From positions 150,001 through 182,000 of the forward strand of contig JAZDEL010000004.1 of assembly GCA_043808785.1 (NCBI GenBank): DNA of 32,000 nt. Reading direction: 5' to 3'. Under the pieces are notes generated by a model that was given only the letters and a program-made list of their open reading frames with translations, did not search any database and had not been told where the DNA came from. Shown piece after piece: positions 1 to 15,456 of the stretch (position 1 is its first letter; every line of letters starts with the position of its first letter). The position numbers and the translations under genes were made by a program. Origin of the DNA: Candidatus Iainarchaeum sp. Lineage in GTDB: Archaea > Iainarchaeota > Iainarchaeia > Iainarchaeales > JAZDEL01.

Positions 1-85
1 AGGCTTGTATTTATGCGGGTTCACAGAACCCGCGACGTACGCGGCATGCGCGATCGCAAGCGCGCTTCAAGTCCCTCCGGAGGCT
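1..85 (+). tRNA. 3' terminal part of an intron-containing tRNA gene that begins upstream of the window (intron tail 1-65, then T-loop, T-stem and acceptor 3' strand 66-85)
   Basis: 66-72 TTCAAGT (T-loop), 73-77 CCCTC, 78-84 CGGAGGC, 85 T discriminator, then T-run 89-94. It is preceded by the hairpin GCGCG-ATCGCAAG-CGCGC (48-65), whose loop is identical to the hairpin that ends the tRNA-Tyr intron (2344-2361). The 5' part is not visible, so the identity is unknown. Confidence 0.4.
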
Positions 86-119
86 CTCTTTTTTAAATTT
101 TCAGAAAATTTGGCTCTCA

Positions 120-2043: not shown

Positions 2044-2106
2044 GTGCAGGCTAGGCGGGCTGAGCCAAAGCGAAGCCCCCCGGATCGTGCACGGATCCTT
2101 CCGTGC
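2044..2106 (+). ncRNA. conserved 63-nt structured leader module abutting tRNA +1 (copy A)
   Basis: Near-identical to 15061-15123: GTGCAGGCTAG, a hairpin with a GAGC..GCGAA loop, then CGGATCGTGCACGGATCCYTCCGTGC. It ends exactly at the tRNA-Tyr 5' end. A/T-rich boxes lie 25-45 nt upstream. Confidence 0.5.
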
Positions 2107-2397
2107 CCCGCCTTAGCATAGTAGCCAATGCGTTCGGCTGTAGTTGAGCCTTTCTTTTGCAAAGAAAGCCTCGGGAAAGAAAGGAATTTTGCTTCGCAAA
2201 ATTCAATCAGAATTCCCGCGGCTGAAAGGAAAGGCGATGCGAACCGTTCGGAACGGTTGTGTGCCATTTTTGATGGCATGGCGCATTTGCGAGAGGAAGG
2301 AAGGCTAGTTCCATCGAGCGAGAGCGAAGATGGAACGCGGCACATCCGATCGCAAGCGGATACCGAAAGATCCCCGGTGCAACTCCGGGAGGCGGGA
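2107..2397 (+). tRNA. tRNA-Tyr(GUA) with a ~218-nt intron at the canonical 37/38 position (intron about 2144-2361)
   Basis: Hand fold of all four arms:
- Acceptor CCCGCCT/AGGCGGG (C1-G72, the archaeal Tyr identity pair), with A73.
- D-stem GCAT/ATGC.
- Anticodon stem TTCGG/CCGAA, loop CT-GTA-G|A.
- T-stem CCCGG/CCGGG.
A T-run follows the gene (2398-2412).
Caveat: the T-loop is TGCAACT (G at position 55) and the D-loop AGTAGCCA lacks GG. Confidence 0.7.
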
Positions 2398-15027: not shown

Positions 15028-15060
15028 CATTAAAAACCTATTTCCCCCAATTTCTATTCA

Positions 15061-15123
15061 GTGCAGGCTAGTTCGGGTGAGCCCCGAGGCGAACCCGTAC
15101 GGATCGTGCACGGATCCCTCCGT
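15061..15123 (+). ncRNA. conserved 63-nt structured leader module abutting tRNA +1 (copy B)
   Basis: Aligns along its whole length with 2044-2106, including an identical 18-mer CGGATCGTGCACGGATCC. ATTAAAAACC lies about 27 nt upstream of its first G. Confidence 0.5.
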
Positions 15124-15258
15124 GCCCCGGTAGTCTAGCGGTTAGGATGCGGCCCTGTCGGAACTTTTGGGGGCGCGGGGTTCTTGAAACCCCGCTTCCG
15201 AAAAGTTCACAAAAGTTGCGGTGAGGCTGCGACTCGGGTTCGAATCCCGGCCGGGGCG
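15124..15258 (+). tRNA. tRNA-Asp(GUC) with a 63-nt intron at 37/38 (15161-15223)
   Basis: Hand fold of all four arms:
- Acceptor GCCCCGG/CCGGGGC, with G73.
- D-arm GTCT-AGCGGTTA-GGAT.
- Anticodon stem CGGCC/GGCTG, loop CT-GTC-G|A.
- T-arm TCGGG-TTCGAAT-CCCGG. Confidence 0.8.
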
Positions 15259-15383
15259 TTGGCCCATCGAACGAAGCGAGATGGGCCCTGGCCTGATACT
15301 TATTTTCGCAAACCTTTTGGAAGCGGGGGCGAGGCAAACGAGCCCCCGCGCTCAAAAAGGTTTTTCGAATCCCGGCCGGGGCG
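15259..15383 (+). repeat. 105-nt structured insert followed by an exact second copy of the tRNA-Asp 3' end (T54 to discriminator)
   Basis: TTCGAATCCCGGCCGGGGCG occurs at 15239-15258 and again at 15364-15383. The insert contains hairpin GGCCCATC-GAACGAAGCGA-GATGGGCC (15261-15287) and long hairpin 15311-15362. Confidence 0.75.
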
Positions 15384-15456
15384 TAACCTTTCAGCATGGC
15401 GCTTTGCTTTATTAACCCCCAATATTTAAATACCAGTTAGGCGCAATAAAAGGTTC

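Follow-up and report, generated by a model that had tools for sequence, protein, structure and literature searches.

As summarised in PMC4033280 and PMC4090602, related bulge-helix-bulge introns have been transposed between transfer RNA (tRNA) genes in Thermoproteales (Sugahara 2008; Fujishima 2010); according to a 2026 preprint on Asgard tRNA introns, no general route of their arrival is known. Behind tRNA genes, the tRNA-linked repeats (TLR) of E. coli carry 3' ends that repeat the last 18-19 base pairs (bp) of the upstream tRNA or ribosomal RNA gene, and their origin and function are unexplained (Egan and Landy 1978; Rudd 1999; as described in PMC8144298); in Archaea, att duplications or tRNA fragments have been reported at the tRNA-Thr gene of Caldiarchaeum (PMC3293823) and in Aeropyrum (PMC3218864). 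The present analysis concerns the tRNA-Asp(GUC) locus of Candidatus Iainarchaeum sp., a DPANN archaeon of the Iainarchaeota/Diapherotrites type, contained in a stretch of 32,000 nucleotides (nt; contig C4:150001-182000, here called the window), where one long hairpin, h1, lies in the anticodon-loop intron and a second, h2, lies behind the gene, just before an additional copy of the tRNA 3' end, here called the echo. Probably, h1 and h2 are independently placed copies of a young family of nested hairpin cassettes which favours the ends of tRNA and other genes, h2 being contained within an insertion that duplicated the tRNA's 3' end.

The cassette family and its placement at tRNA genes

The tRNA-Asp gene occupies positions 15124-15258 of the window (all positions are window positions unless a contig is given, and all features of the locus lie on the forward strand); it is recognized by the Rfam tRNA model with 45 bits and a long insertion in the anticodon loop, its identity was assigned by ARAGORN with intron search, and it is the sole tRNA-Asp gene found in the genome (1.42 Mb in 10 contigs, 52-54% G+C). 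The 5' exon, positions 1-37 of the tRNA, spans 15124..15160 (Rfam, ARAGORN) and the 3' exon, positions 38-73, spans 15224..15258 (Rfam). Repeat finding and folding place h1 at 15161..15208 (-30.0 kcal/mol), within the 37/38 intron, and h2 at 15310..15363 (-31.4 kcal/mol), abutting the duplicated 3' end, about where an earlier note on this DNA had located them. That h2 is an inverted copy of h1, as the same note held, is borne out by the asymmetric positions of the arms in two inverted-repeat pairs listed by the repeat finder, I1 (15190-15214 with 15304-15328, 25 nt, 80% complementary) and I3 (15162-15180 with 15344-15362, 19 nt, 79% complementary); the copy has diverged.

The earlier note had suggested searching the genome for further h1-like inverted pairs; a census by BLAST and regular expressions yielded about 20 cassette copies, each made up of the tail TTTTCGC(C/A)A(A/G)C and of a hairpin with CTTTTGGAAGYGGG as its 5' arm, CCCRCGCTCCGAAAAG as its 3' arm and, between the arms, a nested apex that varies. 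In h2 the tail reads TTTTCGCA (15303..15310, from the census) and stands on the side away from the echo. The 12-mer of the arm is found 17 times in this genome (once for the reversed control) and four times in G001, a genome of the same genus; in 39 further genomes of the order its counts are those of the background. The family is a young, lineage-specific expansion, and a gapped pattern describing it found no match in the public genome contig collection. The apex is modular, since one apex capped by GA...GCGA is common to four copies and the apex loop of h2, GAGGCAAACGA, recurs in the copy at C9:124494. As dispersed, mostly extragenic imperfect palindromes, the cassettes are comparable to the bacterial REP, BIME and REPIN sequences, with which they also share the arrangement in mosaics of fixed relative orientation and the abundance in one lineage; they differ from these in the strong preference for tRNA borders and loops, in some long target duplications and in that no RAYT/Y1 gene was found.

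The nearest relatives of h1 are the copies behind tRNA-Gly(GCC) and tRNA-Glu(CUC) (38/50), h2 ranking only 4th; the nearest relative of h2 is the copy at C2:133467 (41/50), h1 ranking 10th, and h2 is also close to the copies behind two tRNA-Ser genes. Neither of the two hairpins thus has the other as its closest relative, and they are to be regarded as independent placements; a local inverted duplication was considered as their origin and discarded, each of them being closer to copies elsewhere in the genome.

Ten of the 20 copies lie inside a tRNA gene or within 15 nt of one, against 0.11 expected under random placement. The earlier note had envisaged, as the case that would speak against it, a common dispersed repeat with no link to tRNAs; a common dispersed repeat it is, and the link to tRNAs is strong. 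The placement also follows an orientation rule. Reading each copy in the sense of the tRNA, and naming it R when the hairpin precedes the tail and F when the tail precedes the hairpin, all six copies downstream of a tRNA are R, as are both intron copies (h1 in tRNA-Asp and the one in tRNA-Trp, on contig C10), while F is the orientation of the two copies located upstream of the 5' end of a tRNA and of the two that precede a duplicated 3' fragment (h2 and the copy behind tRNA-Leu(CAG)). The rule also fits a copy situated 7 nt after the stop of an open reading frame (ORF) and copies about 28 nt before TATA boxes: in every interpretable copy, the A/T-rich tail faces away from the adjacent gene piece. 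Complete units, of which the tRNA-Ser(GCU) intron and the trailer of tRNA-Leu(CAG) are examples, form large palindromes whose centre is flanked on either side by a tail and, outermost, by a hairpin. With an exon on the 5' side of h1 and a tRNA fragment on the 3' side of h2, the inverted orientation of the two, and hence their complementarity, follows from the tail-away rule, which suffices alone.

Some copies lie at genes of other kinds. The RNase P RNA gene (C9:7244-7534, 107.7 bits) is followed, 12 nt on, by a family cassette with the hairpin-then-tail order seen behind tRNAs. Three other copies (C2:27368-27400, C9:124541-124575 and C2:205590-205622) are followed by a shared module of about 20 nt resembling GCACCGGAAACGCACCCTCC and then by a TATA box, which stands about 28 nt away from the hairpin; the combination could represent a repeated promoter-upstream module or a cassette with an outward promoter.

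Complementarity of the two hairpins

The earlier note had claimed that h1 and h2 pair better with each other than with themselves, forming two nearly perfect helices which might act as a processing switch. A duplex between them would contain 42 pairs, compared with 20 + 20 in the two local folds, and its energy would be -60.5 kcal/mol, compared with the sum of -61.4 kcal/mol for the hairpins; the claim is not borne out, and the helices are not nearly perfect. A partition function computed over 15124-15384 gives all h1:h2 pairs together a probability of 0.0, with about 18-19 pairs expected inside each hairpin, so that by computation the local hairpins dominate and two appreciably populated, mutually exclusive folds are not obtained. 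Moreover, as can be read directly from the sequence, the long-range fold encloses the 3' exon and crosses the acceptor stem, and therefore excludes the cloverleaf.

Pairing of h1 with h2 in the primary transcript, whether as an alternative fold under regulation or as a duplex of leader and trailer in an arrangement similar to split tRNAs, was weighed as an explanation in its own right. The number of possible pairs and a duplex energy equal to that of the two hairpins together speak for it, as does the use of complementary flanks by the split tRNAs of Nanoarchaeum (PMC3218864); as in the split tRNAs of Nanoarchaeum equitans and Caldivirga, whose complementary flanks build a splice motif in trans, the sequence after position 37 is complementary to the sequence preceding a 3' tRNA fragment. 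In contrast to those systems, the fragment begins at T54 instead of 38, no splice motif accompanies it and a complete gene is present in cis, its whole 3' exon standing between the hairpins. The duplex would bring G37 next to the second T54; the motif scan shows no bulge-helix-bulge at this 37/54' junction of the paired flanks or at 53/54, and joining would not restore a complete tRNA, tRNA positions 38-53 being missing from the product. The family occurs also as solitary hairpins at 18 other loci. Among relatives, the tRNA-Asp locus was read in 11 genomes, six being intronless and five carrying other lineage-specific hairpin cassettes at 37/38; the h1 and h2 pair was found at none of the other tRNA-Asp loci examined, so that the two elements are not conserved together, and a 3' duplication was seen there in just one distant relative, with different inserts. 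Such pairing is very improbable, and the processing switch is not upheld: the complementarity of h1 and h2 is incidental, a by-product of their placement. The outcome for the original finding is negative, in that no function has to be invoked to account for h1 and h2 being complementary.

The 37/38 intron

A scan for strict hBHBh' splice motifs over 15060-15400 returned, as the first of 35 candidates, an intron of 63 nt at the canonical 37/38 position (15161..15223, with borders 15160/15161 and 15223/15224; h=7, H=4, h'=8), and the Rfam alignment likewise shows an insertion, of 66 nt, in the anticodon loop of tRNA-Asp. The motif reads CTGT cg/g AACTTTTG ... CAAAAGTT GCGG tg/a, the slashes marking the splice sites. 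Its central helix of 4 bp joins C32-U35 (15155-15158) to GCGG at 15218..15221 (motif scan) through the pairs C-G, U.G, G-C and U.G; the 3-nt bulges consist of C36, G37 and G15161 on one side and of U15222, G15223 and A38 on the other (15222-15224); the inner helix h', of 8 bp, is made by the 5' arm of the cassette (15162-15169) and the tail at 15210-15217, which is part of the h1 cassette tail (A CAAAAGTT, 15209..15217; inverted repeat I9 and folding), a second copy of the 3' arm. As judged from this motif, the intron is a canonical 37/38 one with h1 for its body, and the cassette supplies most of the splice signal. In the predicted precursor, helix h' would thus come from the 5' arm of the cassette and its own tail, the central helix from GCGG and C32-U35, and the splice sites would lie in the 3-nt bulges.

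The enzymes for such a reaction are encoded in the genome: a single EndA, with its domain in an ORF of 186 amino acids (C7:3230-3490), and RtcB (C3:81183-82487); RNase P RNA is also encoded. The size of EndA suggests the homotetramer type, which cuts canonical motifs only (PMC5829648) and would fit the strict motif present at tRNA-Asp. Since the only tRNA-Asp gene carries the intron, its splicing is expected, as a prediction; EndA and RtcB would remove the intron, and RNase P and RNase Z would trim the ends of the tRNA.

The intron of tRNA-Trp on contig C10 is of the same build. That one genome carries related introns in more than one tRNA gene (here Asp and Trp), at splice-competent sites and, here as a prediction, with removal by EndA, is what the locus has in common with the transposed introns of Thermoproteales; it differs from them in that most copies of the family are not introns (they are found in tRNA trailers and leaders, at gene ends and upstream of promoters), in that the expansion is lineage-specific and in that the tail of the cassette itself builds helix h'. 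In the relative G015, the tRNA-Gly(UCC) gene (locus L002) carries a cassette-type intron, a trailer hairpin GGCCCATCGA...GATGGGCC as found here behind tRNA-Asp, and an echo of 13 nt.

The 5' side of the gene is also structured. Directly preceding tRNA-Asp, sequence comparison identified a leader cassette (15060..15123) composed of a GA-loop hairpin and of a second hairpin, GCACGGA-TCCC-TCCGTGC; its last 29 nt are found, with 96.6% identity, 5' of tRNA-Tyr (window 2081-2109), and a relative of it stands 5' of the tRNA-Ile echo. Rfam searches at permissive thresholds gave tRNA only, plus chance matches for the hairpins.

The 3'-end echoes and the spread of the cassettes

Behind the gene, a direct repeat has its first copy at 15239..15259, comprising T54 to the discriminator G73 plus one T of the functional gene, and its second, the echo, at 15364..15384 (repeat finder), exact at 21/21 nt; 3' of the echo come the original flank and the next gene's promoter. 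Between the repeats lie 104 nt of non-coding DNA containing, in this order, a hairpin, a degenerate copy, in antisense, of the end of the tRNA, a tail and h2. The first hairpin (15261..15287, inverted repeat I15) has an 8-bp stem and the loop GAACGAAGCGA; the same hairpin is also found as a trailer 3' of tRNA-Gly in the relative G015, and similar GA...CGA loops cap several cassette copies. The antisense copy (15285..15299) reads GCCCTGGCCTGATAC, to be compared with the reverse complement GCCCCGGCCGGGATTC, is weak when taken alone and overlaps the preceding hairpin by 3 nt.

Archaeal RNA polymerase terminates at oligo-T, and the first run of at least five T after tRNA-Asp is a T5 run (15361..15365) made of the end of h2 and of T54 and T55 of the echo, which is a putative transcription stop; a scan for sigma-70 promoters and terminators, unsuited to archaea and with a size limit exceeded by the h2 loop, did not call h2. 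The transcript would then run through the trailer to this junction of h2 and echo, with h2 folded locally. A role of the echo in splicing was also sought: the strict scan of 15060-15400 gave no candidate whose 3' site falls at 15363 +/- 2 or whose 5' site falls at 15238 +/- 2, and no splice motif using the echo was found in the locus; an alternative 3' exon at 53/54 or at the echo border was discarded, the only candidate being a trivial and weak one arising from a CCGG palindrome.

Read as history, h2 would be part of a non-coding DNA insertion that duplicated the last 21 bases of the tRNA, with the gene remaining intact to its left and an unused echo to its right. The relic of recombination which the earlier note had proposed for the alternative fold survives in this weaker sense, as the duplicated 3' end together with h2 resembles a DNA-insertion scar recurring at other tRNAs. 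The layout is that of the E. coli TLR, a short non-coding unit following a tRNA gene directly and ending with a copy of its 3' end, here of 21 nt and elsewhere of 10-23 nt, for the 18-19 bp of TLR; the archaeal units differ in being built of nested hairpin cassettes dispersed in the genome, and the likeness is one of layout only, sequence homology not being expected.

In this genome, echoes follow the genes of tRNA-Asp, Thr, Ile, Gln (two) and Leu, and others were seen in the relatives G001, G004, G012, G015, G018 and G021; in an anchored test, 10 exact echoes were counted among 199 tRNAs, where about 0.24 were expected. All echoes end at the discriminator or one base beyond, their lengths range from 10 to 23 nt, and the approximately 16 echoes seen enclose 37-144 nt of hairpin DNA and no genes. 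The echo of tRNA-Ile(GAU) is of 19 nt with one mismatch, that of tRNA-Leu(CAG) of 12-13 nt and that of tRNA-Thr(UGU) of 20 nt with two mismatches, starting from T54 (window 66-85) and with a T6 terminator only on its 3' side. Several echoes contain 1-3 mismatches, a sign of decay; the older echoes have decayed and so resemble relics of insertion. Neither the Ile nor the Thr echo is present in the congener. At the tRNA-Ile(GAU) locus, which is syntenic, G001 (contig C75, locus L144) has a cassette of the h family with its tail; the same site here (C1:150994-151150) has a leader-type cassette and the 19-nt echo, and whole cassettes have been exchanged between close relatives.

As further observations on individual echoes, tRNA-Thr(UGU) (C4:149930-150094, window 1-94) ends at window base 5 and is followed by a hairpin insert of 60 nt; tRNA-Gln(UUG) (C1:149537-149703, locus L110) is followed by two units which end in exact 3'-end copies of 11 nt and 22 nt; and the tRNA-Asp gene of G012 (locus L007) has on its 3' side two tandem units of about 46 nt, the first ending in an exact copy of the last 12 nt of the gene and the second in a diverged 9-nt copy. 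An isolated fragment resembling a T-arm and acceptor, GGGTTCAAATCCCGCCCCCGCC (C2:266540-266570), received no tRNA call from ARAGORN and could represent either a piece of a tRNA or a gene with an unusual interruption.

A repeat extending from the T-loop to the 3' end of a tRNA is the geometry expected at tRNA att sites. The main rival explanation accordingly sees the 21-nt repeat as the attL/attR scar of a tyrosine-integrase element once inserted in the T-loop of tRNA-Asp and since mostly lost, the remnant of 104 nt having been colonised by cassettes, h2 included. The exact course of the repeat from T54 to the tRNA 3' end is in its favour, together with six tyrosine-recombinase genes in the genome, of which two stand immediately behind tRNA genes, a remote copy, 25 nt long, of the tRNA-Leu(CAA) 3' end beside a small ORF on another contig, and documented tRNA fragments produced by integration in archaea (PMC3293823, PMC3218864), which share with our locus the direct repeat of the 3' part of a tRNA from the T-loop and the intact gene on one side. 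What separates the locus from these scars is the content of the insert, two hairpins and spacers with no integrase, element genes or remnants of them, made of the genome's own cassette types, and the fact that the same small geometry recurs many times; all echoes seen enclose just 37-144 nt of gene-free DNA, their lengths vary between 10 and 23 nt, duplications of 30 and 73 nt at sites other than tRNAs are left unexplained by a tRNA-specific integrase, and none of the six recombinase genes lies in the window, all being on other contigs or at C4:124476-125006, outside C4:150001-182000. An integrase scar is thus unlikely here. A genome search for remote att partners yielded, as copies of tRNA 3' ends, the local echoes and one tRNA-Leu(CAA) fragment only; this exact copy (C8:2606-2630), just after the small ORF and with the gene at C10:182889-182973, looks like the true attR of an integrated element or of an island spanning contigs.

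The antisense segment offers another explanation, according to which the trailer is a degenerate minihelix derived from tRNA-Asp (15285-15291 as acceptor mimic, the echo, and h2 at 53/54) and kept as a processing or termination signal. Segment 15285-15299 is partly complementary to the echo and could pair with it as an acceptor/T-stem minihelix, with a duplex of -24.8 kcal/mol that 3% of shuffles equal, and the T5 run follows h2; at tRNA-Gln, here and in the congener, unit 1 of the trailer forms with its antisense strand a clear acceptor/T-stem minihelix, showing an A-U to G-C compensatory change with respect to G001. On the other hand, the antisense strand of tRNA-Asp overlaps the preceding hairpin and contains two mismatches, seven of the ten echoes tested have no significant antisense partner, several echoes are mismatched, and the layout is not conserved at the tRNA-Asp loci of relatives, so that a maintained minihelix at this locus appears improbable, and somewhat more so than an integrase scar. 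An antisense copy preceding every echo had also been considered as a general rule and was dropped, being significant for the two tRNA-Gln units only and marginal for Asp.

Independently placed cassettes, with h2 inside a duplicating insertion, are therefore retained as the preferred explanation, against which several observations weigh. By 4.7 kcal/mol, the computed energies favour a complete h1 hairpin over the conformer that displays the strict splice motif. Only 4 of the 20 family copies have flanking direct repeats, and duplication is therefore no obligatory product of cassette insertion. The echo of tRNA-Gln covaries in two species with the T-stem of its own tRNA and with the antisense strand, a hint that not all echoes are neutral scars and that some are kept up or have a function. 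An allele with an empty site was sought with an exact pattern of echo plus flank, which was unmatched in public metagenome and genome contigs, and in the congener G001 tRNA-Asp is not assembled. Finally, no PF01797 match, the mark of a Y1/RAYT transposase, was found in the genome (92.9% complete), and mobilisation of the RAYT type was discarded on this ground.

As to the mechanism, which is proposed with low confidence, the cassettes would spread at the level of DNA, either by means of an enzyme acting in trans or by template switching at stable hairpins, with re-copying of 10-70 nt of the target. Two family copies away from tRNA genes are bracketed by diverged direct repeats, one of 73 nt with about 80% identity (C2:216736-216962) and the other of 30 nt (C2:133390-133538), so that tRNA ends are not the only sites at which long target duplications occur. 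It is conceivable, though we hold it only tentatively, that the cassettes represent an active and so far undescribed mobile hairpin element of DPANN archaea, inserting at the loops and bases of stable stem-loops in the genes of tRNAs and other RNAs. With its 5' arm and a tail able to pair with this arm, such an element would bring along a ready-made h' helix, so that an insertion after position 37 would need just four complementary bases to turn into an intron that can be spliced; an insertion in the T-loop or at the 3' end would survive only with the 3' end duplicated, and the tRNA-Asp locus would show both outcomes.

How archaeal tRNA introns arrive is an open question, and in the present case the body of the intron is one member of a repeat family that expanded recently and has its other copies outside genes in the same genome, so that the donor population can be identified. 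The locus also displays the insertion of a 3'-end echo, which recurs across the order and whose closest described counterpart found is the unexplained TLR of E. coli. Insertion and loss can be tested directly in related genomes, between which single cassettes differ; if the cassettes are indeed a mobile element, they would provide a concrete and testable route for the de novo gain of introns by archaeal tRNA genes.

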